Below, piece by piece: positions 2,066 through 57,942 of a stretch of 64,000 bases of DNA (positions are counted from its first letter, which is position 1; each line of letters begins with the position of its first letter). Below the pieces are notes generated by a model. The model ran no database searches, was not told where the DNA came from, and was given only the letters and a program-made list of their open reading frames with translations. Source of the DNA: Bacteroidia bacterium. Its GTDB lineage: Bacteria > Bacteroidota > Bacteroidia > JACCXN01. Position numbers and translations under genes: made by a program. The stretch is from positions 928,009 through 992,008 of the forward strand of contig JBKBHS010000001.1 of assembly GCA_046299555.1 (NCBI GenBank). Reading direction: 5' to 3'.

Positions 2066-2836
2066 CTAAAAACGAATTTTAAAATTTTCCTTTGCTTGTT
2101 TGTTATGCAAAAAAACTATTCCCAATTGGAATAAATCAATTGTAACATTTGCCTTTGGGTGTTTGCAAATATTATTCCAGGCATCTTCCATTTCTTTCGA
2201 CCAGTGGATGTCGTCAAAAATTAAAATATCATGCTCTGTAGCATTTTTTATAATGCTTTCAAAATAGGAAATGGTAGCCTCTTTTTTATGGTTACCATCT
2301 ACATAATAAATGTTTTTCTTTCCTTTAATTTTTTCCAGTTCAGTGTTTAAACAATTATCGAATGTATCATTGATCAATTCAATGTTGGATAAATTAAGGT
2401 TTTTAAAATTTTCACGTGCTATGGAGGCAATGTTTTTACATCCTTCAATGCTAATTACATGTTTAGCAGCTAACGAAAGGTAAGCTGTGGTAATTCCAAG
2501 CGATGTACCCAATTCCAATACATTTTCTGTTTGGTGCCATTGGCAAATTCTGTAAAGCAGTTCGCAATATTTTTTAGGTTTTACAGATATGCGTGCAATG
2601 GAGGAAATGCTTCGTTTATTATTTTTATGAATTCTCGATCCTGCACCAAAATCGTTTATTTCAATTTCTGCATTACGGTGTAATAATTCATTTCGTAAGG
2701 CTTCTATTTTTTTAAAATCAGGATTTGATTGTTTGGCGTACACCACATTCTCAAGAAATGAATATACAAATGGAGAATGTGTGCCATGTAAGGTATTGGC
2801 TTGAAATAGATGTTTTATGTATGATAAAACTAGCAA
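2066..2836 (-). CDS. class I SAM-dependent methyltransferase
   Basis: 256 aa; LELGTSLGITTAYL glycine-rich SAM-binding motif and DGNH-type acidic motif. Confidence 0.65.
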   Translation of the reverse strand: MLVLSYIKHLFQANTLHGTHSPFVYSFLENVVYAKQSNPDFKKIEALRNELLHRNAEIEINDFGAGSRIHKNNKRSISSIARISVKPKKYCELLYRICQWHQTENVLELGTSLGITTAYLSLAAKHVISIEGCKNIASIARENFKNLNLSNIELINDTFDNCLNTELEKIKGKKNIYYVDGNHKKEATISYFESIIKNATEHDILIFDDIHWSKEMEDAWNNICKHPKANVTIDLFQLGIVFLHNKQAKENFKIRF

Positions 2837-2842
2837 ATAATT

Positions 2843-3766
2843 TTATTTTTTATCCTCAGGTTTATCAAACAATATATTACAGCCGGGTAGCAATATTCGC
2901 ATTATTTCAATTTGTTCTTCGCTAAAGCTATTGCCTCTAATATCTAGTTTGGCAAGGTTTCTAAAGTTTACAATATCATCGTTTAAACTGCTTAGTTGAT
3001 TATTTCTTAATGATAAAACCTTTAGTTTTCGCAGTTCATAAATGTTACGCGGAAGATTACTTATCTCGTTATTATCTAATACCAGCACTTCTAAATTTTT
3101 AAGATTGCAAATCTCATTTGGTAGTTTTTTTATTTTGTTTTTTGCAAGAACCAAACTTTTTAAATTTTTTAATTCACCTATGGAATTTGGAATTGAATCT
3201 ATGGGAGAATTATAGATAATAATGTCCTGTAAATTGGTTAAATTACCAATGCATTCGGGTAAATGCAATGTATCGGCTAAATTATTTTGAATATGAAAAA
3301 TTTTTAAGTTAGATAAATTACAAAGTTCTTTTGGAAAAGAATCGATTTTAGCTCCAATTAATTCGAGATGAATTAATAAATCCAAATTGCCAATTTCTTT
3401 TGGAAGACTTTGTAATGGGTTAAATTTGCTTGAAAAATAAATGAGGTTTGATAAATATGAAATTTCTGTTGGTAAATAGTTAATGCTATTATTCCCTATT
3501 TGAAGGGCTTGTAATTGTTCTAATTTGGATAATTTTTTTGCGTCTTTATTCCAATCAATAAATTGATCAGATAAGTCTAATTTGTAAGTATTTTTCGAAT
3601 TTTTTACTGCATCATTTAAGCTTGTATAAATTTCACTTCCATACGGCCCATATTTTTTTAGTGGAGGTAAATCATTTTGCCCAAATAGTTTAAGTATAAA
3701 TCCTCCTATCAGCAGAACAATACAAATAGCATATTTATTGGTAAAATACATGAAGCCAAAATACAA
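2843..3766 (-). CDS. leucine-rich repeat (LRR) protein
   Basis: 307 aa; many LxxLxxLxLxxNxL repeats (LSNLKIFHIQNNL, LKNLEVLVLDNNEISNLP); N-terminal hydrophobic segment. Confidence 0.8.
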   Translation of the reverse strand: MYFGFMYFTNKYAICIVLLIGGFILKLFGQNDLPPLKKYGPYGSEIYTSLNDAVKNSKNTYKLDLSDQFIDWNKDAKKLSKLEQLQALQIGNNSINYLPTEISYLSNLIYFSSKFNPLQSLPKEIGNLDLLIHLELIGAKIDSFPKELCNLSNLKIFHIQNNLADTLHLPECIGNLTNLQDIIIYNSPIDSIPNSIGELKNLKSLVLAKNKIKKLPNEICNLKNLEVLVLDNNEISNLPRNIYELRKLKVLSLRNNQLSSLNDDIVNFRNLAKLDIRGNSFSEEQIEIMRILLPGCNILFDKPEDKK

Positions 3767-3796
3767 TTTGTTTTTGGCTTTTTAAAGTCTTAAAAT

Positions 3797-4663
3797 TTAA
3801 AGCGTAAAAGTTTTTTTAAATATTAATTGGCTGCTATCTTCAAAAATTAAAATTTGATATTCTCCTTTGGGCCATCCTTTAATATTTAAATTTACATGAT
3901 ACGAGTAATTTCCCGGACCTTCTGATGAATTTTTTACTAAAGCATTCATAATTCTTCCATTTTTATCTCTAACTTGTATAGAAGTAATTCCGTTATTTTT
4001 CTTAATGTAATTAATGTCTCCTTTAAGCAAATAGTGTTTTCCGCTAAATAATGACGAAGTATCTTTTAAATAATAAATGTTATACCAAGGTAATTCAATG
4101 CCTTTAATTTCTGCCAAAGTTTTTCTTAGTTCATATACATCATCCATTTTATCAGAATGAACTGAAGCAATTTCATGATTGTTGCTCAAGACCCAAATAG
4201 CATGCTGTATAGCGTCAATTGGAAAATTATTTTTATTGATTACTTCAGCTAATTTAATCCATTCTGGCGGAGCCATTTTACCAACAGAAAAATTAATATC
4301 TTTTTGAGGAGAGCGATCGGTGCTTTCACAACAAAAAGCAAAAGCATCGTTAGTTTTTGTTTCATTAGGAGTGAGTGTAATTAATTGCTCTTTAACGATT
4401 AATAAATCTTGCATGGAGCTATCGCTGCACATAAGTCTTCTGCCATATTCTAAATGAAGTATGATTGCTTCGTTTGAAATATTTTTACTTACAATACTGG
4501 CAGAATTTCCTTTGTGTTCACCTTTACCTTTTATTTCGAGTATGATTTTATTTTTTCGAAATGCTTCTTCAATTGAAATAATTGGAGATTTAAGATGTGC
4601 ATGTGTTTTAATATACAACACGATACTTATTACTAACAGAAAATAAAATTTCACTGAAATCAT
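3797..4663 (-). CDS. hypothetical secreted protein (ORF extends to 4747; likely start MISVKF... at 4663)
   Basis: ORF with signal-peptide-like N-terminus from the internal Met; no recognisable domain. Confidence 0.5.
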   Translation of the reverse strand: MISVKFYFLLVISIVLYIKTHAHLKSPIISIEEAFRKNKIILEIKGKGEHKGNSASIVSKNISNEAIILHLEYGRRLMCSDSSMQDLLIVKEQLITLTPNETKTNDAFAFCCESTDRSPQKDINFSVGKMAPPEWIKLAEVINKNNFPIDAIQHAIWVLSNNHEIASVHSDKMDDVYELRKTLAEIKGIELPWYNIYYLKDTSSLFSGKHYLLKGDINYIKKNNGITSIQVRDKNGRIMNALVKNSSEGPGNYSYHVNLNIKGWPKGEYQILIFEDSSQLIFKKTFTL

Positions 4664-4838
4664 GATACCTCCTTTTTTAAAGTATTCCCATGGGTGTTTG
4701 AATTCCCTTTTTGCCATTGCATTTTCTAGGTGCTGCGCATGAAGCACATTGTATAATGGTAAAGGTTAGTATAATTGCTATGATAAATCTTCGACACATA
4801 CTAAATCAACGGTCGCTCTTGTCGATTTATTGTATCAT

Positions 4839-4867
4839 AAAAAAAGCCCCTGATATCAGGGGCTTTT
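4839..4867 (-). terminator. rho-independent terminator downstream of GH18 gene
   Basis: Perfect palindrome gcccctgatatcaggggc followed by T-run on minus strand. Confidence 0.8.
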
Positions 4868-4884
4868 AAAAGGTATATGAAAAT

Positions 4885-7857
4885 TTATTTTTTGATAAAT
4901 GGAAGTAGAAATCGATCATTGTCATTTTCAATCTTTATAAAATAATTTCCGCTACTTAAATGAGAAACTGAAACGTCCTTATCTTTCTCTGAACTGTTGA
5001 ATTGAAGACAAATTCTACCGTTTGAGTCAAAAATAGTTACAACATAATTATTTTTTATATTGGTTTTAATTGTTATAAAATCGCTTGCCGGATTAGGGAA
5101 AACAGACACCTTGATATTATTTTGATTATTAGCAATCCAAGTTGGATTTGTGGAAGTGGTATCAAATACAATTTGTCCGTTGCTAATAGCTGTATCGCCT
5201 ATTAAACCTGCACCATTTACAGCCCTAACTGTAAAGTAATATATTTGATTATAGTTTAAATTTAATCCTGTTTCATTTACACTAAGAGCATTGCTATTAT
5301 TACTCCAGGCTATAACATTACTATCACCGGGAGCAGTACCGATAGCATACCAATATTGACTAATTCCGGAATTGGTATCAACAGCAGCCTGCCAATTGGC
5401 AGAAAGTTGTGAGGTGCTGTAAGTTGTATCAATATCGTTTCCTGTTCCGTCATTTAATGTTGTAACAGTGGTTGGAGGTGTCCAATCTACATTAACATCT
5501 TGAGAGGCAATAGTTGATAAATTACCTGCAATATCTTGCACTATTGATTTAACTCTTCCTGCAGGTTGATTAGGAATAGGGTTTTGATAACGGATATCCT
5601 TATTATTTTGTGGTCCAACACTAATTAGAGTAGAAGGGAAGCGAGAACGATAAACTTTTAAATTATTTATCATATAATCACAATTCCCACTTCTAAATGA
5701 GATATAGTCACCACTTGCATAAGGTGATGAATCTGTCCATTGTGCAGATAACACATCGTTAATATAAACGTTAATTTTACCTAAAATTCTATCGTAAGTT
5801 ACTTTAAAATCGTACCATGTGTTGGCGGTAAAATTATAAGGAACATCAATCATCGGAGAACCAAAATTGTCGTTAATTACTTTATAAATTTGAATTTTGT
5901 CGTCATCTAATCTAAACCAAACAAAATAAGAATTACCTCTATTGGTTAATGTTGGGTTATCACAAAAGAAATGAAAACCGGCTCTTCGATTTGTTCCTGT
6001 TCCATCTATTTTTCCTGCCCAATGATATAAGTATCTATTAGATAAATCTTGTTTTAAAAATGCATAAATATTTGTGTTACCAAGAGTTTGATTTGATTGA
6101 TGTAAATATCCATTTGTAATTTGCCATGTACCTGTAACGCTTGTCCAGTCTGCATGAGGAGTTGTAGTTTGGTCAAAATTATCGCTGAAGAAACCTCTGT
6201 TGGCATTTGCTCTCCATTCTGTTCCATCAAATTCTAATACTTGATAAAAACTTTTGTCAATTCCGGTACCACCAGTGTTGTCTGCATCGGTATAATTTGC
6301 AGTAAAGTCATTAGTAATCCAACCATTTGGAACACTTACGGATGTTGTTGGTGCAATATTATCAATAATGCATTGGTAGATTGCTTGCCAACCTGATGAA
6401 GTTGTGCTGTTGTCTGATTTGAATCGAAGTGTTACATGTCCTGAATTAGTTGTAAATGTTCCGGGAGAATTATTCCCATGATAAGCACCAATAAGAGGTG
6501 CATTTGTGTTAATTCCGTTATAAATAAATAATGTGTCGTAATTGGCTTCGGTAGAGAATGAAGTAAAGTTAAGTGTTATAGCACTTGCGTTAGTTGGTGA
6601 TATGGTGTATGTATAATTTTCATTATTATAATAATTCCCCTGAGGTCCCCCCATGTCCCAAATAGTATCAGAGCATGCAACCGTTCCACAATTCGTAAAT
6701 TTTTCTTCTATTTTATTCCAAAAATCAGGGTAACCATCATCTTGACCTAAAGCCCAAATACCTACACCGGCTATATTTCGTTGTTTTACCAAATCAAATC
6801 GTTTGCCCATGGTGTATGCGTTATTTATATGGCATTGTCTCCAGTTTCCACCGCTTTGATATGCATAATAAATACTTTGGCTGCGCTGAACAAACCCCGG
6901 ATTGTTATAAATTGAAGGATTGTTTTTTACATAAGCGAATGTTCTTGCACTTTGAACATTTCCGGTTGTATTTGCGGGTATTGTGTTGGCTGTAACTTCC
7001 CATTCGCGTCCATAGAATGGTAATCCTAATACTAATTTATTAGTTGGAATTCCTTTGTTTAAATAGAAGGTTATAGAGCGTGAAAGATTGTAATCATAAG
7101 TATTGGTAAAACTATACAAAGGGTCGGTTGGGCCGGCTTGAGAGCTTCCGCTCCAATAATAATCATACCCCATTATAATGAATAAGTCAACTTGAGTCAT
7201 ATTAGCAACATCGTATGCATTGCTCCAATCTACAGCAGGTAGGGCTATTGATAGTTGTGAACCCGGTATAGCATTGTGTAATTGAGTGCCTAACGCATTC
7301 ATAAATGCAGTCATATTAGCTGATTGCGATGATGGTAACCCTTCTATATCGATATTTATACCATGCGCCCCTCTAGATTGTACAAGATTAATCAAATTAT
7401 TTATACAAGTTTGTCGGGCAGTTGCATTGCCTAAAAAAGTTGCATGATTGCTAAAAAGTGTGGCACATAAGTTTACTCTTACACCATTATTTAATGCAGC
7501 GGTTACAACACCTGCAGTTGCCCAATTATTTGTATTAACAGCGTTTCCGGTATTGGCATCAATTTCGTATGAAAAGTAAGATAGGTCTGAAAGTAAATTC
7601 CATTGATAGTTATTGTAAATGGCAGCATTGTTCATCCAATAGGGATGCCAACCAAAAACAATTTTATTTAAATTGCAATTTTGTGCGGCACGTTGATATT
7701 CAACAATTTTTTGTTGTAACATCATATTTTCATAATCTTGTGCACTTAGCCCTATGTTTTTGTGCTCTTCAAGCATTTCGTGATGAACAGAGGTGTATTG
7801 AGCAAAGCTGCTTGTAAAAGTTATAATGGTAAAAAAGATTTGAAATATTTTTTTCAT
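4885..7857 (-). CDS. GH18 family glycoside hydrolase (chitinase-like), T9SS type-A C-terminal sorting domain
   Basis: 990 aa; GH18 motifs (GWHPYW..., FIIMGYDYYW); long beta-rich central region; C-terminal ~80 aa Por secretion tail (KVSVFPNPASDFITIK...FIKIENDNDRF). Confidence 0.8.
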   Translation of the reverse strand: MKKIFQIFFTIITFTSSFAQYTSVHHEMLEEHKNIGLSAQDYENMMLQQKIVEYQRAAQNCNLNKIVFGWHPYWMNNAAIYNNYQWNLLSDLSYFSYEIDANTGNAVNTNNWATAGVVTAALNNGVRVNLCATLFSNHATFLGNATARQTCINNLINLVQSRGAHGINIDIEGLPSSQSANMTAFMNALGTQLHNAIPGSQLSIALPAVDWSNAYDVANMTQVDLFIIMGYDYYWSGSSQAGPTDPLYSFTNTYDYNLSRSITFYLNKGIPTNKLVLGLPFYGREWEVTANTIPANTTGNVQSARTFAYVKNNPSIYNNPGFVQRSQSIYYAYQSGGNWRQCHINNAYTMGKRFDLVKQRNIAGVGIWALGQDDGYPDFWNKIEEKFTNCGTVACSDTIWDMGGPQGNYYNNENYTYTISPTNASAITLNFTSFSTEANYDTLFIYNGINTNAPLIGAYHGNNSPGTFTTNSGHVTLRFKSDNSTTSSGWQAIYQCIIDNIAPTTSVSVPNGWITNDFTANYTDADNTGGTGIDKSFYQVLEFDGTEWRANANRGFFSDNFDQTTTPHADWTSVTGTWQITNGYLHQSNQTLGNTNIYAFLKQDLSNRYLYHWAGKIDGTGTNRRAGFHFFCDNPTLTNRGNSYFVWFRLDDDKIQIYKVINDNFGSPMIDVPYNFTANTWYDFKVTYDRILGKINVYINDVLSAQWTDSSPYASGDYISFRSGNCDYMINNLKVYRSRFPSTLISVGPQNNKDIRYQNPIPNQPAGRVKSIVQDIAGNLSTIASQDVNVDWTPPTTVTTLNDGTGNDIDTTYSTSQLSANWQAAVDTNSGISQYWYAIGTAPGDSNVIAWSNNSNALSVNETGLNLNYNQIYYFTVRAVNGAGLIGDTAISNGQIVFDTTSTNPTWIANNQNNIKVSVFPNPASDFITIKTNIKNNYVVTIFDSNGRICLQFNSSEKDKDVSVSHLSSGNYFIKIENDNDRFLLPFIKK

Positions 7858-7880
7858 AATCTTAAATTTAAGGTAATGTG

Positions 7881-8789
7881 TTAATTGAAAAATCGTGGTG
7901 ACTTATAGTTATATCGTTTTTTGTTTATAGTTTTAAATGTGCCCGAAATCATTATTTCGTGCGAACCACTGCTAAATGTTCTTAAGGGTTTTGCATTAAA
8001 GTCGTATGAATAACCTAATCTAAATTCATCTGTAATATTAAAACCAACTAATGCAACAAAAGATTCTTTTAAGCGGTAAGACATACCTGCATAATATTTA
8101 TTGCGATAATATACATTGGTGTTTAGTTCATATTGATTAACGTTAACTCGACTTTTCATCAAAAATGCCGGTATAACATCAATTTCTTCATTCGCTTTTA
8201 TTTTATATTTAGCATATGCAAAATAATGGCGTGGAATTCTAAAAATAGTGGCATTGTCTAATGAACGGTCAACGTGAGTGGAAGAAATACCGGCTGTAAT
8301 TTTTTCTGAATTAAATTCAAATCCAAAACCAAAATCAGGTTTAAAAGCGCTTTGCCTTCCATAAATTGCATATTGGTCACCTACTTCTTCAAATATTAAT
8401 TTGCTTCCATCTAAGCGTTTATTTATAAATCCGGCACTTAACCCCGCTGAAATTGTTGCTTTTTCTGAAAGGCGTAAATGATAGGCATAATTCAAACGAG
8501 CAGTTAATGAATTTTCAAAACCTAATTTGTCGTTTATGATAACAAGACCTAATCCGCCTCCAATTTTTTCAAGCCAAGTGTGAGCATTTAAAAATTGAGT
8601 AGATGGTGCATTTTCAACTCCCATCCACTGCTGTCTGGCTACTAAATTGGCATGAATTTTATTTGAATTCCCGGCAACGGCAGGATTGTAGATCAATTCA
8701 TTAAACATGAAATGACTAAACTGAATATCGTTTTGCGATTTTACCGCAAACGCAATCAGTGTTAAAACAATGAAAAAATATTTTTTCAT
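7881..8789 (-). CDS. PorP/SprF family T9SS outer-membrane protein (adhesin-associated paralog)
   Basis: 302 aa; signal peptide then conserved N-terminal QNDIQFSHFMFNELIYNPAVAGN...ARQQWMG typical of PorP/SprF. Confidence 0.85.
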   Translation of the reverse strand: MKKYFFIVLTLIAFAVKSQNDIQFSHFMFNELIYNPAVAGNSNKIHANLVARQQWMGVENAPSTQFLNAHTWLEKIGGGLGLVIINDKLGFENSLTARLNYAYHLRLSEKATISAGLSAGFINKRLDGSKLIFEEVGDQYAIYGRQSAFKPDFGFGFEFNSEKITAGISSTHVDRSLDNATIFRIPRHYFAYAKYKIKANEEIDVIPAFLMKSRVNVNQYELNTNVYYRNKYYAGMSYRLKESFVALVGFNITDEFRLGYSYDFNAKPLRTFSSGSHEIMISGTFKTINKKRYNYKSPRFFN

Positions 8790-8799
8790 AAATTTTATT

Positions 8800-10698
8800 T
8801 TAATAATTCGTTACTTGAAAAGTTGTTCTTCTGTTTTTGGCGTGTTCTTCTTCCGTCTTTGCGTTTTTTATAAGTGGTTGCGATTCTCCGTAACCTTTAG
8901 CTTGTAAACGTTTAGCATCAATGCCTTTTTGAATCAAATAATTTACTACGCTTTGTGAACGCTTTTCTGATAATTTCAAATTATATTCATCTGTACCTTG
9001 TTCATCGGTGTGAGAATTGATAACAATTTCTACTTGTGGTGTTTCTTGTAATATGTTAACTAATTTATCAAGTTCTTTTTTAGATTCTTCTTTTAGTTCG
9101 TATTTATCAAAATCGTAGTAAATATTCGGGATGGTAATTTCTTTCTTAGTTATTTTAAGTAATCCAAAATCTAAATCGTATCCTGTTTTTTTAGATATAA
9201 CGGTATTCTTTTTAATACCATCTGTATTAAAGTTTTTAGAATCTCCGAAATATCCTTCTTTATGTGCGCTTACTTCATACTTTACATCGGTTTTTAAATC
9301 TTTAAATGTGTAAACTCCTTTATTGTTTGTAAAAGTAGAATCAAAACTTCCATCGCTTCCTTTTAAAAATACTTGAACTTTAGAAATGGCTTTACCGGTT
9401 TCAGAATCAACAATGGTTCCGGTAGCTGAAATTTGTATATCAAGTAATTGAAATTGCCAAATATCGTCATCGCCTTTGCCTCCGTCTCTGTTGCTGCAAA
9501 ACCAACCTTGTGTATTTGATTTTAAAATAATTCCGAAATCGTCTGTATTTGAGTTAATGGGTTTTTTAAGGTTTTGTACGTTTGAAAATCCTTTATCTTT
9601 TATTGTTGCAACAAAAATATCTAATCCACCATAGCCGGGATGTCCGTTAGAAGAAAAATAAAACAAACTATCATTATATACAAATGGAAACATTTCGTCT
9701 GCTTCGGTATTAATTTTTTTTCCGGCATTTTTAGGTTTGCTCCATAAACCAAGAGCATCTTTCTGAATATACCAAATATCTTTTCCTCCTTGTCCTCCGG
9801 GCATATCGGATACAAAGTATAATGTGTTACCATTATTGGCTAATGCCGGATGGCCAACACTGTATTTTTTATCGTAATCAAATTCAAAAACTTTTCCTGC
9901 ATCCCATGTTTTAGTGGTTTCATTATAGGATGTTGTAAGAATAAAGCATGTTTCTTTTTTACCATCTTCACCATTGCATTGCATAAAATAAACGATGTTA
10001 TTTTTATCATCAAACGCAATGGTACCATCATTAAATTTTGAATTTAAGCCACCTTTGCTCTTTTGAGCATTAATAAAACGTTCTTTTTTTGAATCGTATA
10101 TGGCTTCATAATAATCAGAAAAGCCTTGTCCGGTATAGGTATCAAAACGCTTATCGTTCTCTTCAATACGAGTAGAAGCAAAAATTAATTTGTCTTTGTA
10201 AAAAGCTAATCCATACTCACTGAAAGGAGAGTTTATTACTTCTTCATTTATAATTAAATATTGTTCGTTTACTTCATTGTTTTTTTGAGCAAATATGCAG
10301 GATTCGATTTTACGTTTTAAAATTTTATCATCTTGTTTAAATTCTAAAGCCTTATTGTATGCTGCATCAGCTAAGGTATATTCGCCATTTTTTATTAAAA
10401 TGTCGCCATAGTTTACAAAAAAATCAAACGAACGTAATCCTTCATTTAAAGCAATATCATACCATTTTTTAGCTTCTTTATGATTGTTCATATAACGATA
10501 GGATTCGCCTATTAAATAGGCAACATCTTTCTTTTTTTCTTTGCTAACATCTTTCTTGAAAGATTTTTCGTACAATTTGGCAGCAACAGCATATTCCTTG
10601 TATTTAAAGGCACTGTCAGCTTTTTGTAAATTACTTTGTGCTTTAGCAAATACAGAAAAAAATAAGATTGAGAGTATGATGAATTGTTTATACTGCAT
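8800..10698 (-). CDS. OmpA family protein with TPR and WD40/TolB-like beta-propeller regions
   Basis: 632 aa; C-terminal OmpA domain (NIYYDFDKYEL...NSHTDEQGTDEYNLKLSEKRSQSVVNYL); N-terminal TPR-like helices. Confidence 0.85.
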   Translation of the reverse strand: MQYKQFIILSILFFSVFAKAQSNLQKADSAFKYKEYAVAAKLYEKSFKKDVSKEKKKDVAYLIGESYRYMNNHKEAKKWYDIALNEGLRSFDFFVNYGDILIKNGEYTLADAAYNKALEFKQDDKILKRKIESCIFAQKNNEVNEQYLIINEEVINSPFSEYGLAFYKDKLIFASTRIEENDKRFDTYTGQGFSDYYEAIYDSKKERFINAQKSKGGLNSKFNDGTIAFDDKNNIVYFMQCNGEDGKKETCFILTTSYNETTKTWDAGKVFEFDYDKKYSVGHPALANNGNTLYFVSDMPGGQGGKDIWYIQKDALGLWSKPKNAGKKINTEADEMFPFVYNDSLFYFSSNGHPGYGGLDIFVATIKDKGFSNVQNLKKPINSNTDDFGIILKSNTQGWFCSNRDGGKGDDDIWQFQLLDIQISATGTIVDSETGKAISKVQVFLKGSDGSFDSTFTNNKGVYTFKDLKTDVKYEVSAHKEGYFGDSKNFNTDGIKKNTVISKKTGYDLDFGLLKITKKEITIPNIYYDFDKYELKEESKKELDKLVNILQETPQVEIVINSHTDEQGTDEYNLKLSEKRSQSVVNYLIQKGIDAKRLQAKGYGESQPLIKNAKTEEEHAKNRRTTFQVTNY

Positions 10699-10704
10699 AA
10701 TTCT

Positions 10705-13700
10705 TTAATCTCCTACAACAGTTACAGGGCCATTTTTTACAACATCTTCTCCGTATTCGTTTTTATATTTTATGATATAATAGTAGGTGCCCGGTGCAAC
10801 TTTTTTACCATTAAAAGTACCATCCCATCCATCTGTTCCTTGATATAGTTGCTGTCCCCAACGATTAACGATAGTTAGGTCAATTCCTTTTAAAAACACA
10901 TCGTTTACTCCATCGCCATTAGGTGTAAATGCATTAGCAACAGGAATTACACGGATTACCAGCGAATCGTTTACTTCGCTCTTACATTCTCCTTCTGTAA
11001 CAATTACGTATACAACATATCCATCTTTTAGAGCTGATGTTTGGTAAATATTGCTACTGCCACTTTGAACGCTATTATTGTTTAAAAAGAATTCATAATT
11101 ATCATATCCACTTGGAGATGCGGTAAATGTTACAAGTTGGTTACTATATATGGTATTATTTATAGCATCCGAAGTTAATGTTACAACAGGCAAGGGATTT
11201 ACAATTACCGTAACCGGTATTCTTCCACCGCTGTTTATACATCCTTCAGTACTTTCTGATTCAATATAATATGTTGTAGTAGCAAATAATGCTCCGGTAT
11301 TATAAGTAGTTCCGGTGTATAATAAAACTCCTCCTGTTGCTGCGTTCCACCAATTTATTTGTGCTCCTGTAGTTGATGTGGATGCAGTTAATATGGTACT
11401 GTCTCCGGCACAGATTTCAGTATCTCCTGCAACCAGTGAAGGAGCATTTGGTAATGGATTTACAACTATTGTAACAGGAGTTCTACCACTTAAAGATGTA
11501 CATCCAAATTGATTTGATGTTTCAACATAGATTGTAGTGGTAGTTAATGCTGTAAATGAATAAGGGTTATTGCTTAATAAATTACCACCTATTGGAGCAT
11601 CATAAAATGAATATGTAACGTTTCCACCGGTAGAACCACTTGCTGTTATTGTAACATTTGTACCAAAGCAAACGGTATCACCACTTGTTGTAATTGTAGG
11701 AGGTGTTGGATTTGGTGCAACAACTATGGTTACAGGAGTTCTTGAAGTATCACTTAAACAACCGCTCGTATTGCTTACTTCTAAATAATAGGTGGTTGTT
11801 GAGGTAGGTGATACTGTTAATGGAGAATTTCCTAAAAAGTTTCCTCCGCTTGGGCTATCATAAAAAGTATAAATTATTGTTCCACCCGTAGAGCCGCTTG
11901 CTGTAATAATTGTTGATTCTCCTACACATATTGTATCATCGCTAACTGAAATAGTTGCAGGAGTTGGTGTTGGATTTACAACGATATCTACCGGAATTCT
12001 TCCTGAAGGCAATGAACATCCATCACTATTAATAACTTCTAAATAATAAGTTGTGCTCGTAGTTGGAGAAACACTCAGAGGAGAATTTCCTAAAAAATTT
12101 CCTCCGGTTAATGCGTCATAAAAGTTATAACTTATATTTCCTCCAGTTGAGCCACTTGCAGTTATGAGTGTACTGTCACCGGAACAAATGGTATCATTAC
12201 TTACAGTAATAGTTGGAGTAGTTGGTGTTGGATTAACCGTTATAGTAACAGGTTGGCGACCTCCTGTAGCAAGACACCCGCTTGTTGTGCTTACTTCCAA
12301 ATAATAAGTTGTAGTAGAAGAAGGACTTACTGTTAAAGGAGAATTTCCTAAAAAGTTTCCTCCAGTAGCTGCATCATAAAAACTATAAACAATACTTCCC
12401 CCAGTAGAACCACTGGCTGTTATTGTTGTGCTGTCTCCAGCACATATTGTATCATTTGTAGTTGTAATAGTGGCCGATGTTGGAGTGGTATTTACAGTAA
12501 TCGTATAAGGTTGTCTTCCTCCATTAGCTAAGCAACCTGAAGTATTACTTACTTCTAGATAATAGGTGGTGGTACTAGTTGGAGATACTGTTAAAGGTGA
12601 ATTTCCTAAAAAGTTTCCTCCTGTTAATGCATCATAAAATGAATAAATAATTGTTCCACCACTAGATCCGCTTGCAGTTAGCGTGGTACTTTGACCTGAA
12701 CAAATAGTGTCATTAGTTGCTGAAATTATGGCTGCTGTTGGAGTTGGATTAACAGTTATGGTTATTGGAATTCTTCCTCCTAAAGCAACACAACTATCAC
12801 TATTTATTGTTTCGATATAATAAGTTGTAGTATTGGTTGGTGATACTGTTAAAGGTGCTGATCCTAAAAAGTTACCTGCTGTAGCTGCATCATATACATT
12901 GTATATAATTCCACTTCCTCCGCTTGAACCACTTGCATTTATAGTAGTAGATTGTCCTGCACAAATAGTATTATTTGTAGCACTTACAGTAGGTGAAGTT
13001 GGAGTTGGATTTACTGATACATTCGTATAGGCAGTATCCTTACAACCGTTAGCGGCTGTTCCAATTACGCTGTATGTGGTATTGGTTGTAGGTGAGATAT
13101 TTATACTCGATGATGTTGATGAATTACTCCAAATGTAACTTGATGCTCCACTTGCTATTAGGGTAGTACTGTATCCATTGCAAACACTTACCGGATTCCC
13201 GGAATTAATTTGTACGGTTGGATTTGGTTTTACATAAATTGTTTTTGTTAAAGTTTGTTTTTTACCGCACACACCTTCTGCTAATAATACATATGTTGTT
13301 GTTGTGCTAGGAGTAACTGTTATGTTTTGCGTTGTTTGTCCACCTGGTGACCATAAATAGCTTGTCGCTCCGGCAGGACCATTTAAAACTACAGAATCGC
13401 CAAAACAAATAGAATCATTTGCAGAAGTTATTGCAGGAAATTGTATTCCTCCTGTTGCTTGTATACTATAATTACATATATCTCCTGCAAAACCATCAAT
13501 TAATAAGTAATAATCCTGACCGATTGTTAAATTATTTGCAGTAATGGTTAAAGTTGATGAACCTTCTCTAAAATCAGAAACCGGAGCAAATCCACAGCAG
13601 GGAGAGCTGGCTGTAAATATTTGCATTTGAATACCTCCTGAAGGATAATTACCTACCCAGCAATCGGTAATATTTACAGTTAATGTTATAGTTGTATTGG

Positions 13701-15291
13701 CAGCTGTAAATCTAATCCATGAATTATTATCTAATCTAACATCACATAAAGGAGCCCCTACTCCTGTATATGGAGGCGATGGTGCCACACCAAATACACT
13801 TCCTGGTTGGCATGTTCCGGGTGTGTAAGTGTAAGTTGGAGGATTATTTTGTTCTGCATTAGCGCGCATATTACATGGCCTGTCAGTAGTATAGGCTGCG
13901 CTGGTAGAACCACTGTATCCATCTAAATCACATATATATAATGCATCTGCACAATTATCGTTGGATGGAGATTGTACGCAAATTCCGAATTGTCCTGTAG
14001 TGTTTCCATTAAATGCCCAATATCTTAAATAAACAGTGCTTCCCGGTGTTAAGCCCGTAGCTTTAATAAAAGGCTTTAAATCATTTGCAGATCCTGGGTA
14101 ATTATAATCATCAGAACAAGCAATTTGGGTTAAAGATGTACAAGTGCCACTATAAAGCGCCATAGCAGCATCGTTAATTCCAAATCCCGGTTGAGGTACT
14201 ATGGTTACTATACCATTAGCGGGTACAGTTATGGCAAACCATACATCTTTGGGTTGAGGAGCAATATTAAAACCTCCTTGTTGTGGAGCAGATCCCCCAC
14301 TACAACTGGCAGGTATTGGTATTCCCGGCCCACTCGAAGTAGTAGCCCCAACGGTCGTAAATGTTAAGTAATTACACGCTGACGTTACCGGTGGTAATTG
14401 TATAGCATTACAAGGGTCATCATTTACTGGACTCGCACTTGCTGGACCTGTAACACAAATATTAAATGTACCTCCGCCATTTGAAAAATAGTAATCATAA
14501 ACTCTAACATAATAGGTATTACCGGGAATTAAACCAACTGCATTAATTACTTCATTTCCTCCCGAAAAACCATTGTCAACACAATTTAACGATATTAAAC
14601 TTCCACAAGTACCTGAAAAAAGTTGAACTACAGGGTCCATGCTACCATTAGGAGTTACTGTTATTGTTTGCACTGCGTTTGTGGCAATAAATGAAAACCA
14701 AACATCATCGTCTGCATTTCCTGTACATCCAGCTATTGATTGAGTAGCACCAACGGATGTCCCTGCTGTATTTACACATGAAGTATTAACATTTAAAGCA
14801 ATAGCTCCGCTGCAATTATCATTCGATGGAGCAGGAGGGGGATTGGTAACACATATGGTAAAATTTCCGGAACCTGAACCGGCAAAATAATGATATACTC
14901 TTATGTAATAACTTTGTCCAACGGTTAATCCGCTGGCAAATATCGTTTCGCTTTGGCCTGATAATCCATTATCTTGACATGCTAAAGTGGTTAGTCCGGA
15001 ACAAGTTCCTGAAAATAATTGAACAACAGGATCAAAAGAAGGTGAGGCTGTAACGGTTATTTGATGGCTTGTGGCAGTTGCTACAAAGCGATACCAAACA
15101 TCATCATCAGCGTTACCAACACATCCGCTCAATGTGCTTACTGTAGCACCTGTTGTTGTACCTGAATTTGGTGAAGAACAGTTTGCTGTAACACTAATTA
15201 AAGTTGCTGTAGCACAATTATCAGATTGGGCATTTGCATATAAACTCAATAAGATGCATGTAGTAAGCATCAAATAGTTAAATATTTTCAT
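10705..15291 (-). CDS. large cell-surface adhesin-like protein with T9SS type-B CTD (gliding-motility-associated C-terminal domain)
   Basis: 1528 aa; signal peptide; three N-terminal PPC-like domains (GNADDDVWYRF...YYIRVY); seven ~86-aa Ig-like tandem repeats; C-terminus ANAFTPNGDGVNDVF...RWGQQLY...WDG...GTYYYI matches type-B CTD. Confidence 0.85.
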   Translation of the reverse strand: MKIFNYLMLTTCILLSLYANAQSDNCATATLISVTANCSSPNSGTTTGATVSTLSGCVGNADDDVWYRFVATATSHQITVTASPSFDPVVQLFSGTCSGLTTLACQDNGLSGQSETIFASGLTVGQSYYIRVYHYFAGSGSGNFTICVTNPPPAPSNDNCSGAIALNVNTSCVNTAGTSVGATQSIAGCTGNADDDVWFSFIATNAVQTITVTPNGSMDPVVQLFSGTCGSLISLNCVDNGFSGGNEVINAVGLIPGNTYYVRVYDYYFSNGGGTFNICVTGPASASPVNDDPCNAIQLPPVTSACNYLTFTTVGATTSSGPGIPIPASCSGGSAPQQGGFNIAPQPKDVWFAITVPANGIVTIVPQPGFGINDAAMALYSGTCTSLTQIACSDDYNYPGSANDLKPFIKATGLTPGSTVYLRYWAFNGNTTGQFGICVQSPSNDNCADALYICDLDGYSGSTSAAYTTDRPCNMRANAEQNNPPTYTYTPGTCQPGSVFGVAPSPPYTGVGAPLCDVRLDNNSWIRFTAANTTITLTVNITDCWVGNYPSGGIQMQIFTASSPCCGFAPVSDFREGSSTLTITANNLTIGQDYYLLIDGFAGDICNYSIQATGGIQFPAITSANDSICFGDSVVLNGPAGATSYLWSPGGQTTQNITVTPSTTTTYVLLAEGVCGKKQTLTKTIYVKPNPTVQINSGNPVSVCNGYSTTLIASGASSYIWSNSSTSSSINISPTTNTTYSVIGTAANGCKDTAYTNVSVNPTPTSPTVSATNNTICAGQSTTINASGSSGGSGIIYNVYDAATAGNFLGSAPLTVSPTNTTTYYIETINSDSCVALGGRIPITITVNPTPTAAIISATNDTICSGQSTTLTASGSSGGTIIYSFYDALTGGNFLGNSPLTVSPTSTTTYYLEVSNTSGCLANGGRQPYTITVNTTPTSATITTTNDTICAGDSTTITASGSTGGSIVYSFYDAATGGNFLGNSPLTVSPSSTTTYYLEVSTTSGCLATGGRQPVTITVNPTPTTPTITVSNDTICSGDSTLITASGSTGGNISYNFYDALTGGNFLGNSPLSVSPTTSTTYYLEVINSDGCSLPSGRIPVDIVVNPTPTPATISVSDDTICVGESTIITASGSTGGTIIYTFYDSPSGGNFLGNSPLTVSPTSTTTYYLEVSNTSGCLSDTSRTPVTIVVAPNPTPPTITTSGDTVCFGTNVTITASGSTGGNVTYSFYDAPIGGNLLSNNPYSFTALTTTTIYVETSNQFGCTSLSGRTPVTIVVNPLPNAPSLVAGDTEICAGDSTILTASTSTTGAQINWWNAATGGVLLYTGTTYNTGALFATTTYYIESESTEGCINSGGRIPVTVIVNPLPVVTLTSDAINNTIYSNQLVTFTASPSGYDNYEFFLNNNSVQSGSSNIYQTSALKDGYVVYVIVTEGECKSEVNDSLVIRVIPVANAFTPNGDGVNDVFLKGIDLTIVNRWGQQLYQGTDGWDGTFNGKKVAPGTYYYIIKYKNEYGEDVVKNGPVTVVGD
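11190..13010 (-). repeat. seven tandem ~258-bp repeats (86-aa Ig-like domains) inside the adhesin gene
   Basis: Recurring DNA block ggagaatttcctaaaaagtttcctcc at ~11820, 12076, 12338, 12596 (variant at 12850); protein repeats NPTPT..TICxGxSTT..ASGS.GG...Y.FYDA.TGGNFLGNSPL.VSPT..TTYYLEV. Confidence 0.8.
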
Positions 15292-15302
15292 AGATGTAAA
15301 TT

Positions 15303-15665
15303 TTATTCTTTAACTGAAATTTCTTCTTGTTTCAGTTCAATAGGTGTAAGTTGATTTGAAATAATCAGCTTTTTTAATTGAGTAACATCAAATCCTTCTT
15401 CGCTTTCACGTTTGTTAATCTTGTCGCTAACCTCAACTATAAGTAAACCTTTACCACTATCTTTTTTGTAAATTGTTTTTACAGATAGAATGTTTTTTAA
15501 CGACTCAACATCTTTCTTTAATAAGTCTATCTGATTTTCGGAACTTATATTTTCAAAAGAGTAACTATAGCGAATAGTTTTAAAATTGCTGTTTTGGGCA
15601 TTTATTTGGAAGTAAAAAGCAATTGTAAAAAACAACAACACAAATAAACGAAACAATGTTTTCAT
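15303..15665 (-). CDS. hypothetical small secreted protein
   Basis: 120-aa ORF with signal peptide, 11 bp upstream of adhesin gene start. Confidence 0.5.
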   Translation of the reverse strand: MKTLFRLFVLLFFTIAFYFQINAQNSNFKTIRYSYSFENISSENQIDLLKKDVESLKNILSVKTIYKKDSGKGLLIVEVSDKINKRESEEGFDVTQLKKLIISNQLTPIELKQEEISVKE

Positions 15666-15764
15666 AGGCCAAGATATTTTTAAATCAATTTTTAATTAGC
15701 CTTTTTAAAAGGGATGCGAATTTAAGCCATTTGTCGATTATAAGTCAAGTTTTATATGTTAAAT

Positions 15765-16289
15765 TCAAAAACCGGTACTAAATCCCATACGAATAATAGG
15801 GTTTCTGTAAATAGAATATTCAGAATCATTTAAGTTCCACAACCCCATAATACTTAAAAAACTATTTGGTCCAAGCCTTTGCCTGTAACCACCACCAACA
15901 AAAATACTAGTAACATTTACTCTCCCTTCTAAACTGTAAGGCGATTCTCTGTTCAAAACCTCATATTCTCCATGACCAAATAAATAGTCCGTTATATTAT
16001 ATCTGGCAAACAGACGTCCACCATAAATACTAGTACTTAAATCAAAACGATTATCCTGTAAGTAAATATAGCTAATACCAGGGCCTGCAGATAACCTATC
16101 GGTAATTCTATAACCAATTAAAGGAGATAGTTCAACATAAGTAATTGTTCCAAACATCAAACCAAAGTTTCCACCATAAAAAAAACGATCTCCAATCGGT
16201 TCCTTGTTTTGAATCCCTACTTGTCCATTGCTTTCTAATGAAATTAAGATAATTAAAATTAATGTATAAATTACTTTTAGAATTTTCAT
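15765..16289 (-). CDS. outer-membrane beta-barrel (porin-family) protein
   Basis: ~174 aa from MKILKV; signal peptide; alternating hydrophobic beta-strand pattern; C-terminal aromatic (F). Confidence 0.55.
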   Translation of the reverse strand: MKILKVIYTLILIILISLESNGQVGIQNKEPIGDRFFYGGNFGLMFGTITYVELSPLIGYRITDRLSAGPGISYIYLQDNRFDLSTSIYGGRLFARYNITDYLFGHGEYEVLNRESPYSLEGRVNVTSIFVGGGYRQRLGPNSFLSIMGLWNLNDSEYSIYRNPIIRMGFSTGF

Positions 16290-16463
16290 GTTACAAAACT
16301 GTCTAAACATAGATAAAAAACGGAAGCTTGATTTGATAATCTATCTACAAATTTAAATTAAATAAACCACAATATTTATATATGCATTTAATAAAGATAT
16401 TAATAAAAATGTAAAAATATTTCCTTGTAAATCAATATAAAACAACAAAAGCTTAAAATAATA

Positions 16464-16494
16464 TTTGCAGATATTAAAACCCTTAGTACATTTG
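16464..16494 (+). promoter_or_regulatory. rRNA operon promoter P1 (Bacteroidetes sigma-A type)
   Basis: TTTG -N19- TACATTTG matches the -33 TTTG / -7 TAnnTTTG consensus with 19-nt spacing. Confidence 0.6.
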
Positions 16495-16579
16495 CAGCCC
16501 TCAAACAAAGAAATCAACAACGTTCATTTGAAAAGTTTGAGAATGAAAAATAAATAAATAAAATTTTTTTCATAAAAAG

Positions 16580-16610
16580 TTTGCAGATTTAAAAACTGTA
16601 TGTACCTTTG
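16580..16610 (+). promoter_or_regulatory. rRNA operon promoter P2
   Basis: TTTG -N19- TACCTTTG; part of a ~100-bp repeat unit (aaaagtttgcagatttaaaaa...tacctttgcagcccctta). Confidence 0.65.
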
Positions 16611-16679
16611 CAGCCCCTTAAAAATGAATGTAGAGAAATAGAGGTTTAAAAACGAAGAGAAAAATATTTTAAAAAAAAG

Positions 16680-16710
16680 TTTGCAGATTTAAAAAAGGTG
16701 TTTACCTTTG
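16680..16710 (+). promoter_or_regulatory. rRNA operon promoter P3
   Basis: TTTG -N19- TACCTTTG; near-identical repeat of P2. Confidence 0.65.
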
Positions 16711-16784
16711 CAGCCCCTTAAAAATGATTAAGGGATTAAAACTTGAAAAGTAAATCGAAACAAAAAATATTTTTTTAAAAAATA

Positions 16785-16815
16785 TTTGCAGATTTAAAAA
16801 AGGTGTTTACCTTTG
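16785..16815 (+). promoter_or_regulatory. rRNA operon promoter P4
   Basis: TTTG -N19- TACCTTTG; near-identical repeat of P2/P3. Confidence 0.65.
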
Positions 16816-16990
16816 CAGCCCCTTAAAAATGATTCCTTAAAAATGATTAAGGGTTTAAAAAGTAAATTAAAACATTTTATTATATTATTAAGTTCTTTGA
16901 AAGATTTTATTGAAGAGGTAAAGGTAGCGTAATTGAATGATCACACCCCGTGATCAATGAGCCAACTCCAAATATTTTAAAATTTTTTAC

Positions 16991-18512
<1,522 letters not shown>

Positions 18513-18643
18513 AGAGTATTTGCTCATAATTTCAATTACGTTCCTTCCTCCTTCAATAAATATCTAAAACTTTTCCCATTAAACGAGCTCAGTGATGGTT
18601 CGGCCATCAGGGCATAAGGAATTAGTCCCCATTGGGATTTTAA

Positions 18644-18717
18644 AGTCCCGTAGCTCAGTTGGTTAGAGCACTACACTGATAATGTAGGGGTCAGCAGTTC
18701 AAGTCTGCTCGGGACTA
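18644..18717 (+). tRNA. tRNA-Ile (GAT) in 16S-23S spacer
   Basis: Cloverleaf agtcccg.../...cgggact; anticodon loop ctGATaa; T-arm agcagttcaagtctgct. Confidence 0.9.
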
Positions 18718-18731
18718 CAGAAAATCGTTTT

Positions 18732-18805
18732 GGGGAATTAGCTCAGCTGGCTAGAGCACCTGCCTTGCACGCAGGGGGTCAACGGTTCGAATCCGTTATT
18801 CTCCA
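18732..18805 (+). tRNA. tRNA-Ala (TGC) in 16S-23S spacer
   Basis: ggggaattagctcagctggctagagc...; anticodon loop ttTGCac; G3:U70 wobble in acceptor stem. Confidence 0.9.
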
Positions 18806-18887
18806 CAATTAACCGCTCATATTTATATAGCGGAAAAGTTCTTTGACATGTTGAAAGAGAGTACTTCTCATTAATTTTAATAATTTT

Positions 18888-21775
<2,888 letters not shown>

Positions 21776-21844
21776 TACATACAAATTATTAAAATTTATG
21801 ATAGTACTTTCTTTCTTTATGTCATTATAAAATATTAAAGATTT

Positions 21845-21954
<110 letters not shown>

Positions 21955-21961
21955 TTTAATT

Positions 21962-53899: not shown

Positions 53900-53956
53900 T
53901 TTTGTAACCTTGTTAATTAAAAAATCGTTAAATCGCTTCACAATAAATTTTACAGT

Positions 53957-53985
53957 CATCATGTTTTAATAGCATGATGACTTTG
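53957..53985 (+). other. stem-loop between porP and gldK
   Basis: gtcatcatg-ttttaatag-catgatgac (9-bp stem) followed by ttt. Confidence 0.4.
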
Positions 53986-54024
53986 TAGCCTAAAATAGGC
54001 TGGTAAAAACTAAACTCGAAAATT

Positions 54025-55341: not shown

Positions 55342-55406
55342 AATTTAATGTGTAAACCCTCTAAACTCAAATAAATCAATTTTAAACCAAATTAAACACA
55401 ATTATT

Positions 55407-56216: not shown

Positions 56217-56273
56217 TATCTGAGGCTAATTAAATTAAATTAAATGTTTAACCATTAAAAACTCTGAAATAAA

Positions 56274-57923: not shown

Positions 57924-57942
57924 TTTTTTAAACTTTGAGTGT

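Follow-up and report, generated by a model that had tools for sequence, protein, structure and literature searches.

In Flavobacterium johnsoniae, five or six operons combine a type-B cargo protein of type IX secretion (the T9SS) with a PorP-like and a PorE-like protein, and these operons are modelled as giving rise to static, wall-anchored complexes (PMC9143113, PMC12618676). Type-B cargo uses a cognate PorP/SprF shuttle, while type-A cargo uses PorV; type-B secretion is independent of PorV, and the PorP/SprF-like proteins of F. johnsoniae are reported to be specific for type-B C-terminal domains (CTDs) (PMC12618676). In Porphyromonas gingivalis, PG1035 is anchored by PorP and PorE (PMC9143113). 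Type-A cargo is anchored via anionic lipopolysaccharide (LPS) (PMC9143113). The 64,000-nucleotide stretch analysed here, hereafter the window, belongs to an uncultured Bacteroidia bacterium (assembly GCA_046299555.1, contig JBKBHS010000001.1, positions 928,009 to 992,008) and contains a minus-strand cluster of five genes, three of which encode a type-B cargo, a PorE-like and a PorP-like protein; downstream of them lies a gene for a type-A protein with a glycoside hydrolase family 18 (GH18) domain.

The core of this cluster is the known T9SS cassette of type-B cargo, PorE-like protein and PorP-like protein. What appears to be new, judging from gene order and sequence identity, is the position of the cassette within a conserved type-A hydrolase locus, in two clades and with different hydrolase paralogues; a literature search found no published description of such a link. 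The explanation favoured here, with a confidence somewhat above even, is that a static-adhesin cassette resides inside a hydrolase locus, and that the neighbouring T9SS cargo genes, inherited together from a common ancestor, are co-expressed and do not constitute a dedicated tethering device.

The type-B cassette

A scan for open reading frames (ORFs) places five consecutive ORFs on the minus strand, at 15303-15665, 10705-15291, 8800-10698, 7881-8789 and 4885-7857, which encode, in cluster order, proteins of 120, 1528, 632, 302 and 990 amino acids (aa); the intergenic gaps, 5' to 3', are 11, 6, 10 and 23 bp. Independent metagenome contigs show the genes in identical order, and the protein records at NCBI are MFN4233939.1 for the GH18 protein and MFN4233940.1 for the PorP-like protein. 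A preliminary description of this DNA had proposed five minus-strand genes separated by 6-23 bp; the ORF coordinates agree with it, and all of its domain calls were confirmed by Pfam and NCBIfam.

The surface protein of 1528 aa (10705-15291, minus strand), whose Pfam and NCBIfam matches are above cut-off, is composed of a signal peptide, a galactose-binding-like head, an Ig_7 stalk and a CHU_C/type-B CTD; seven Ig_7 and two GBD_T9SS_assoc stretches are recognised. Its N-terminus, MKIFNYLMLTTCILLSLYANAQ, reads directly as a Sec signal peptide. The CTD, at residues 1450-1515 (10747-10944, minus strand), matches PF13585 with 49.8 bits (cut-off 27) and TIGR04131 with 41.9 bits (cut-off 35), and its motifs NAFTPNGDG, NRWG, GWDG and GTYYY are kept across eight orthologues from orthologous cassettes, while the N-terminal heads differ from one cassette to another. 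Tandem Ig_7 repeats of 86 aa cover residues 760-1363 (11203-13014, minus strand), with units starting at residues 760-1277; the DNA repeat behind them is a 258-bp tandem array at 12025-12894, with about 3.4 copies and 71% matches, which is likely a site of length variation and of assembly error. The protein had been called a giant adhesin: the type-B CTD stands, and at 1528 aa the size is a relative matter. The F. johnsoniae adhesin SprB is several times larger.

The 632-aa periplasmic protein (8800-10698, minus strand) shows Pfam matches to TPR, PD40, CarboxypepD_reg and OmpA, corresponding to the four-domain architecture of PorE, that is, TPR, beta-propeller, carboxypeptidase-regulatory-like domain and peptidoglycan-binding OmpA_C. 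Against the NCBIfam PorE model it obtains 464 bits, under the cut-off of 600, with an alignment spanning residues 6-618; its best NCBIfam match, again end to end, is CHU_0125 with 471 bits, under the cut-off of 620. The best match of the OmpA domain in the PDB is 6TOP, an 'OmpA family protein' (1.5e-24), which we take to be the C-terminal domain of P. gingivalis PorE with a peptidoglycan fragment. Thus, the end-to-end matches to PorE and CHU_0125, together with the 6TOP-like OmpA domain, identify a PorE-like protein, which is filed as PorE-like and not as PorE because the score lies beneath the NCBIfam PorE cut-off. The signal peptide, MQYKQFIILSILFFSVFAKAQ, is of type I and contains no Cys, so the protein is not a lipoprotein; a signal-peptide Cys is likewise absent from nine orthologues. 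The presence of an OmpA-domain gene in a transcription unit of this kind had been regarded as less documented, a statement to be corrected, since PorE-like genes are described in F. johnsoniae operons (PMC9143113, PMC12618676).

The third member of the cassette, a PorP/SprF-like outer-membrane protein of 302 aa (7881-8789, minus strand), matches PF11751 with 243 bits and TIGR03519 with 256.7 bits, full-length. It is 32% identical to the core PorP encoded at 52922-53899 and, as this second PorP heads the core gldKLMN operon of the window, it is a true paralogue, in agreement with the preliminary description, which had assigned to the adhesin its own PorP/SprF paralogue. The core operon, porP-gldK-gldL-gldM-gldN, occupies 52922-58782 of the plus strand and is followed by secA, to 62226. 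All the porP-gldKLMN genes of the window score above the NCBIfam equivalog cut-offs; the genome therefore has a complete T9SS motor and ring set. By analogy with the described systems, the 302-aa protein is predicted to be the cognate shuttle and anchor of the type-B cargo.

Relatives of the cassette in other genomes

Relatives of the cassette were obtained from a genome scan, a metagenome scan and look-ups of PorP-like homologues, with gene order established by tblastn. The scan of a genome collection with the PorE-like protein gave eight loci, only one of them (L007) a close relative, and the metagenome scan with the PorP-like alignment gave six, several of them too short to show flanks. The order cargo, PorE-like, PorP-like recurs in L007, L023, L024, L028, L029, L030, L031 and L032, and PorP-like orthologues, 44-62% identical, follow a PorE-like gene in nine other loci; in all, nine orthologous loci conserve this three-gene arrangement. 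The PorE-like gene is found between the cargo and the PorP-like genes in the window and in all the orthologues that have a PorE-like gene; L026 has none, and there the cargo gene is directly followed by the PorP-like gene, and L027 has no cargo gene.

The identity matrix of the PorE-like proteins separates three clades, and those of the window and of the amidase-linked loci are neighbours. The window's clade comprises the window and L015 (PorE-like identity 84%), with the GH18 gene downstream of the PorP-like gene; in L015 the GH18 protein is 79% identical and the same eight-gene synteny is kept. The sister clade includes L007, L029, L030 and L032 (PorE-like identity 48-53%), and an amidase gene precedes the cargo gene in all three of its informative loci. 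Members of the third clade (L024, L027, L028 and L031; PorE-like identity about 45%) show no adjoining hydrolase where flanks are visible. Among the loci examined, no GH18 gene occurs downstream of orthologous cassettes outside the window's clade; the neighbours on this side of the PorP-like gene vary, and include MORN, cupin, MTHFR, M20 peptidase, ribosomal protein S1 and TMEM260-like genes.

Some variations accompany these cassettes. A MORN-repeat protein of 115-117 aa, 45% identical between the two loci, is encoded directly after the PorP-like gene in L007 (6111-6458) and L032 (10873-11226). In the third clade, the PorE-like proteins of L027 (7777-9948) and L031 (7578-9947) possess an extra C-terminal SPOR domain after OmpA, a second peptidoglycan-binding module that fits a wall-binding role. 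Within a few kb of the cassette, L015 (16789-18492), L027 (3692-5419) and L031 (1-938) encode a protein about 570 aa long in which TPR and PD40 but no OmpA domain were detected, and which resembles the N-terminal two-thirds of PorE; its counterpart in the window would fall just past the left edge.

The hydrolase locus and the amidase link

Genes coding for an Amidase_2 protein of about 1235 aa with a type-A CTD lie 15 bp upstream of the type-B cargo gene in L030 and 30 bp upstream in L032, and a C-terminal fragment of such a gene is found 40 bp upstream of the cargo gene in L029, at the start of the contig. The plus strand of L030 displays no terminator-like site from the start of the amidase gene until a weak match with a 5-bp stem within the gene for the PorP-like protein. 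Just after the latter gene there is a hairpin, which was called on the minus strand.

The relatives of the GH18 gene that are found in other lineages have a comparable setting. In L016/L017 (GH18 identity 55%) the order is omp181 homologue, Amidase_2-CUB-CTD, a 421-aa BNR/sortilin-like type-A protein, GH18 and a leucine-rich repeat (LRR) protein; L033 (57%) has the same arrangement, with a 412-aa homologue of the 421-aa protein of L016. The series is Amidase_2-CUB-CTD, GH18, LRR in L018/L019 (57%) and in L021 (53%), and weak Amidase_3 protein, GH18, LRR in L022 (50%); in L020 (56%) GH18 is found without a hydrolase or LRR neighbour. Gaps flanking GH18 in these lineages are 0-20 bp, and LRR homologues, 36-46% identical to that of the window, follow it at 0-20 bp in L016, L018, L021, L022 and L033. 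No cassette was found beside GH18 in five more distant lineages.

The amidases and the GH18 proteins are related beyond their catalytic parts. The Amidase_2 protein is about 50% identical to GH18 residues 395-990, the common module being made of CUB, beta-sandwich, FN3 and CTD. The amidases of the sister clade are orthologous to those found at the GH18 loci, with 53% identity over the N-terminal half and 44-52% over the C-terminal module, but have Ig_7 domains in place of the CUB domain. Since the sister clade has an amidase paralogue directly upstream, the cassette is linked to the hydrolase family in two clades. Comparison of synteny across genomes, which had been suggested in the preliminary description, therefore reveals a recurring link with type-A hydrolases, the amidase being 15-40 bp upstream in the sister clade, but not a GH18 gene as a conserved member of the cassette.

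The locus of the window can be read in the same terms. Upstream of the 120-aa gene lies omp181 (15765-16310, minus strand), whose 181-aa product has a signal peptide and weakly matches an outer-membrane beta-barrel family (OMP_b-brl in Pfam, E=0.003, under cut-off). In L016 and L033 its homologues, 42-47% identical, sit directly upstream of the type-A gene with Amidase_2, so that omp181 is part of the hydrolase locus. On the other side of the cluster is a gene for an LRR protein of 307 aa (2843-3766, minus strand; Pfam LRR_14/LRR_8). The window therefore looks like a hydrolase locus, omp181 ... GH18 ... LRR, in which the 120-aa gene, here named p120, and the cassette occupy the usual place of the amidase. 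L016 and L032 are both flanked by a Paa gene cluster, and this common flank suggests one ancestral neighbourhood. In the simplest history, amidase, cassette, GH18 and LRR would have stood side by side in an ancestor, and its descendants would have lost different parts; the full order was not found in any genome among the loci examined.

A few further observations concern the amidase/GH18 loci. The two type-A proteins, each about 1000 aa long, together with the LRR protein that comes after them and carries a signal peptide, span 5589-13896 in L016 and 6927-13945 in L018; similar pairs followed by LRR are present at 6916-13895 in L021 and at 836-9193 in L033. Within one genome, the common modules of amidase and GH18 are 58-60% identical, near the identity of GH18 orthologues between genomes, which hints at gene conversion or strong constraint. 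PorP_SprF genes also occur near GH18 in L016, L018, L021 and L033, and were considered as orthologues of the PorP-like gene of the window displaced by inversion; this was rejected, because they are only 26-31% identical and are paired with small CHU_C proteins, and they represent different paralogues. These small CHU_C proteins, which have a type-B CTD, a length of 189-265 aa and in some cases an SprB repeat, are each paired with another PorP/SprF paralogue and are encoded on the opposite strand, 1-8 kb from GH18, at 20230-21974 in L016, 17266-18790 in L018, 14736-16255 in L021 and 15358-17102 in L033. A gene for a monofunctional transglycosylase is found at most about 0.5 kb from the pair in L018 and L021, and at least 3 kb from it in L016 and L033.

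The GH18 protein and its substrate

The 990-aa protein (4885-7857, minus strand) is a secreted protein with a type-A CTD, matching Glyco_hydro_18 with 117 bits, PF18962 with 54.7 bits (cut-off 27) and TIGR04183 with 50.1 bits (cut-off 23); its N-terminus, MKKIFQIFFTIITFTSSFAQ, is a signal peptide. The predicted domains are a TIM barrel (residues 60-388), CUB (395-498), Ig (503-545), a beta-sandwich (555-740), a second Ig (742-790), an FN3-like domain (800-897, a weak FN3 match) and the CTD (917-990). In the AlphaFold2 (AF2) model, with a predicted local distance difference test (pLDDT) of 83.4, the beta-sandwich 917-990 lies behind a linker of low confidence. The family, of about 1000 aa, includes more than 100 full-length homologues with 50-57% identity over the whole 990 aa.

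Comparison of 121 sequences locates the GH18 catalytic D-x-E in the codons for N168-I-D170-I-E172 (7342-7356, minus strand). The family motif is G-[VI]-N-I-D-[FI]-E, and N168, D170 and E172 are invariant in the 121 sequences. With respect to the classical DxxDxDxE, the window's motif H-G-I-N-I-D-I-E has an invariant Asn in place of the second Asp, and the first is replaced by H or K among the 121 members.

Searches with this protein retrieve enzymes of different specificity. The best single-sequence match in the PDB is Bacillus subtilis YdhD (1.6e-19), with matches also to SleL and YaaH; in the profile search a nematode chitinase comes first among the GH18 chains, YdhD being close behind and other chitinases also within a few orders of magnitude; and in the Foldseek fold search with the model, 4wiw, SleL (rank 3-4), ChiW and many chitinases are about equal. 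Homologues in the Joint Genome Institute (JGI) data have the label 'spore germination protein YaaH'. As the profile search interleaves chitinases and YdhD, the protein is not assignable to either subgroup. Both 'chitinase' and 'peptidoglycan hydrolase' were rejected as firm labels, given that single-sequence, profile and fold searches mix the two; the designation as a chitinase in the preliminary description is thus unproven, although the D-x-E is kept. YaaH and SleL carry LysM peptidoglycan-binding domains; in the window's protein no chitin-binding or LysM module was found with Pfam. No chitin-utilisation gene was found in the vicinity of GH18, where the neighbours are T9SS and LRR genes and, in the other loci, Amidase_2 and transglycosylase genes.

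The protein probably cleaves polymers containing N-acetylglucosamine (GlcNAc). Peptidoglycan is somewhat more likely than chitin as the substrate, because of the tight, recurrent pairing with an N-acetylmuramoyl-L-alanine amidase paralogue endowed with the same non-catalytic module, which is the sole pointer in this direction.

Transcription of the cluster

Downstream of the GH18 gene, a hairpin resembling an intrinsic terminator (4842-4867, minus strand) has an 11-bp stem with six G-C pairs and a T-run; it starts at 4867, 18 bp past the stop codon, and is the predicted end of the unit. A pattern scan detected no minus-strand terminator-like sites inside the five-gene cluster, and an Rfam scan of it gave no match to an RNA family. 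With such short gaps, no terminator-like site within the cluster and a strong one behind it, it is plausible that the five genes form one minus-strand transcription unit ending at the hairpin 4867-4842, as had been proposed.

The start of this unit, however, probably lies one gene earlier than in that proposal, at omp181, which would give six genes. The spacing between omp181 and p120 is 99 bp, with no terminator-like site between them. A candidate -7 box of Bacteroidetes type, TAAATTTG (16348-16355, minus strand), retrieved by pattern search as a consensus match alone, is located 38 nt from the omp181 start, and is the sole strict match to TAnnTTTG just upstream of any start codon within 2800-16990; in the same interval, no strict box was found upstream of GH18 or of p120. 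A scan for sigma-70-type promoters returned fewer sites than in shuffled sequences and is thus uninformative.

Interpretation of the linkage

In the proposed mechanism, whose anchoring steps follow the models for Fjoh_3952/3951/3950 and for PG1035/PorP/PorE, the 1528-aa protein would be exported via its type-B CTD. The PorP/SprF-like barrel would then take it from the translocon and hold it on the surface, and the PorE-like protein would bind the barrel in the periplasm and tie it to peptidoglycan through OmpA_C. The outcome would be a surface protein that is static and anchored to the wall, and whose sugar-binding-like head is variable. Static behaviour, the opposite of that of SprB, is predicted because the cluster contains a PorE-like gene; thus, of the 'mobile or anchored' adhesin of the preliminary description, the anchored form is retained, in line with the published models of PorE-like cassettes, and the mobile one is not. 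GH18 would be a separate cargo, which its type-A CTD would direct to the surface or the medium via the general PorV/PorU route. Adhesin and hydrolase are likely co-expressed and, since the cassette of the sister clade is directly behind an amidase paralogue, the link is best read as one between co-expressed cargo genes inherited from a common ancestor.

Several points weigh against this account of a static-adhesin cassette inherited within a hydrolase locus. The order here is cargo, PorE-like, PorP-like, whereas Fjoh_3952-3950 is cargo, PorP-like, PorE-like; moreover, PorE is described as a lipoprotein (PMC9143113), whereas the window's protein and its orthologues have no lipobox Cys. The analogy with the F. 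johnsoniae cassette and with PorE may then be inexact, as gene order differs, the score is under the PorE cut-off and the PorE-like protein is not a lipoprotein. The evidence for co-transcription consists of spacing and pattern scans, and a promoter within the PorP-like gene is possible. As for the hydrolase, sequence and fold searches match chitinases and spore-cortex hydrolases about equally. Finally, the link with hydrolases is carried by four informative cassette lineages only, and its occurrence in two clades is as compatible with selection for linkage as with simple inheritance.

The alternative that survives best, although it is considered rather unlikely, is a neutral neighbourhood: the cassette was inserted once in, or next to, an ancestral hydrolase operon, and adjacency has no function, GH18 being transcribed by read-through or from a promoter of its own and working without regard to the adhesin. 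This would agree with the occurrence of the hydrolase pair without a cassette in L016, L018, L021 and L033 and of GH18 without a cassette in L020 and L022, as well as with the third-clade cassettes (L031, L024, L027, L026), which have no hydrolase where flanks are visible; the wide variation of the genes after PorP-like and the unconserved heads of the type-B proteins point in the same direction. Against it, the link is kept by two clades that share only about 51% identity in their PorE-like proteins; the gaps are 15-40 bp, and the hydrolase paralogues differ. Such a link seems to outlast the usual persistence of unrelated neighbours in the course of synteny decay, which counts against neutrality.

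Conversely, the association could be functional, a prospect regarded as doubtful. In this case cassette, Amidase_2 and GH18 paralogues, LRR and omp181 would make up an ancestral T9SS locus to hold and digest: the wall-anchored adhesin would grip foreign cells or cell-wall debris, the surface-attached amidase and N-acetylglucosaminidase would strip the peptidoglycan of what is held, and the LRR protein, provided with a signal peptide, would protect the wall of the producing cell itself during the passage of the enzymes through the periplasm. If this were true, some genomes should retain the order amidase, type-B cargo, PorE-like, PorP-like, GH18, LRR.

A dedicated surface-attachment module, as suggested in the preliminary description, in which the GH18 'chitinase' would be physically tethered to the outside of the cell by the PorP-like and PorE-like proteins or by the adhesin, is very unlikely and is left unsupported by the present data. 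The common strand, the 23-bp gap and the lack of a terminator-like site would be in keeping with it, as would the type-A hydrolase paralogue that adjoins the orthologous cassette in the sister clade and the Ig_7 domains of that amidase, which are of the adhesin-stalk kind. However, type-A CTDs are recognised by PorV, whereas type-B secretion is PorV-independent (PMC12618676), and type-A cargo is anchored through anionic LPS (PMC9143113); with this handling and attachment, no tether is needed. Furthermore, the GH18 orthologues keep their full architecture in five cassette-free lineages, and neither a chitin-binding module nor a chitin-utilisation gene was found.

Least probable of all is a specialised export site, where the PorP-like and PorE-like proteins would replace core PorP and PorE in some translocons and serve both type-B and type-A cargo: the paralogues do have full PorP and PorE architectures and, core PorE is required for the secretion of type-A cargo (gingipains) in P. 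gingivalis (PMC12773672), but the same source reports that some cargo is secreted independently of PorE, the PorP/SprF-like proteins of F. johnsoniae are reported to serve type-B CTDs specifically (PMC12618676), the window contains the core porP-gldKLMN operon, and the GH18 family is widespread without such paralogues beside it.

If the link between the inherited cassette and the hydrolases is functional, it would be a first case of a static type-B cassette co-inherited with type-A hydrolases of cell-wall type, and would suggest that poorly known Bacteroidia of the environment digest peptidoglycan, or some other GlcNAc polymer, in a contact-dependent way. The GH18-CUB-CTD and Amidase_2-CUB-CTD families, widespread and unstudied, gain a testable context. 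If only the neighbourhood has been inherited, the locus adds a further example to a cassette known from Flavobacterium, and its main value lies in what it corrects: an 'OmpA protein' that is PorE-like, an adhesin whose predicted behaviour is static and a 'chitinase' label that is unproven.

Neighbouring genes

The first of the five genes, p120 (15303-15665, minus strand), encodes a protein of 120 aa with a signal peptide and, in the AF2 model (pLDDT 85.6), a ferredoxin-like beta-alpha-beta-beta-alpha-beta fold. It has no Pfam or NCBIfam match. A word-index search returned 17 close homologues, all at least 59% identical and confined to the window's clade, and p120 was not found in orthologous cassettes outside this clade. 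A profile search extended the group to 113 representatives of remote relatives, nearly all of 100-130 aa; ten of them were sampled, and none contained a Pfam family. An assignment of function from AF2 and Foldseek was rejected, the matches being only generic alpha/beta-sandwich, ferredoxin-like ones.

On the downstream side, the terminator and an extra gene at 3797-4747 part GH18 from the LRR gene in the window. This gene, on the minus strand, is an ORF of 316 aa, given as 288 aa in the calls on other contigs, and matches no family; it is found only in the window's clade, being 71% identical in L015, lies behind the terminator and looks like a lineage-specific insertion. For the LRR protein, a role as inhibitor or immunity factor is speculation.

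Beyond omp181, an rRNA operon with 16S, two tRNAs, 23S and 5S occupies 16989-21955. A 105-bp unit is repeated in tandem, in about 3.2 copies, upstream of the 16S gene, at 16546-16882 of the plus strand; inspection of the letters points to a fourth copy, more diverged, near 16470-16510. All units contain TTTGCAGATTT...TACCTTTGCAG, fitting the Bacteroidetes TTG / TAnnTTTG promoter pattern, so that the repeats look like stacked rRNA promoters.

Comparison with known systems

The GH18 protein shares with YdhD, YaaH, SleL and the small bacterial or plant GH18 chitinases the TIM barrel and the retained D-x-E. It differs from them in lacking LysM and in adding a signal peptide, CUB, beta-sandwich, FN3 and type-A CTD. 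ChiA of F. johnsoniae, with two GH18 domains and an atypical CTD, is also unlike the window's protein.

As regards the PorE-like protein, the best NCBIfam match, under cut-off as reported above, is to CHU_0125 of Cytophaga hutchinsonii, an OmpA-like member of the PorE family. CHU_0125 is described as a Pal-like lipoprotein that affects outer-membrane integrity and the breakdown of crystalline cellulose and, differently from the window's protein, it is not described as a member of a type-B cassette (PMC5891637, PMC11611037).

In the SprB/SprF system, as is predicted here, an adhesin with a type-B CTD relies on an adjacent protein of the PorP/SprF family; conversely, sprB/sprF have no porE-like neighbour and SprB is mobile (PMC9143113). 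A closer likeness is offered by PG1035, PorP and PorE of P. gingivalis, where type-B cargo sits on PorP, and PorP on a four-domain PorE that binds peptidoglycan via OmpA_C. There, however, PorP and PorE are the single, essential core proteins, whereas the pair of the window consists of paralogues beside a core PorP, and the P. gingivalis genes are not described as a cassette in PMC9143113 and PMC12618676.

The nearest counterpart is Fjoh_3952/3951/3950, which comprises the same three kinds of protein, adjacent on one strand, the gaps in the window being 6 and 10 bp, and which is likewise predicted to produce a static, wall-anchored adhesin (PMC12618676, PMC9143113). With respect to it, the window adds p120 upstream, a type-A GH18 gene downstream and the setting of a hydrolase locus.

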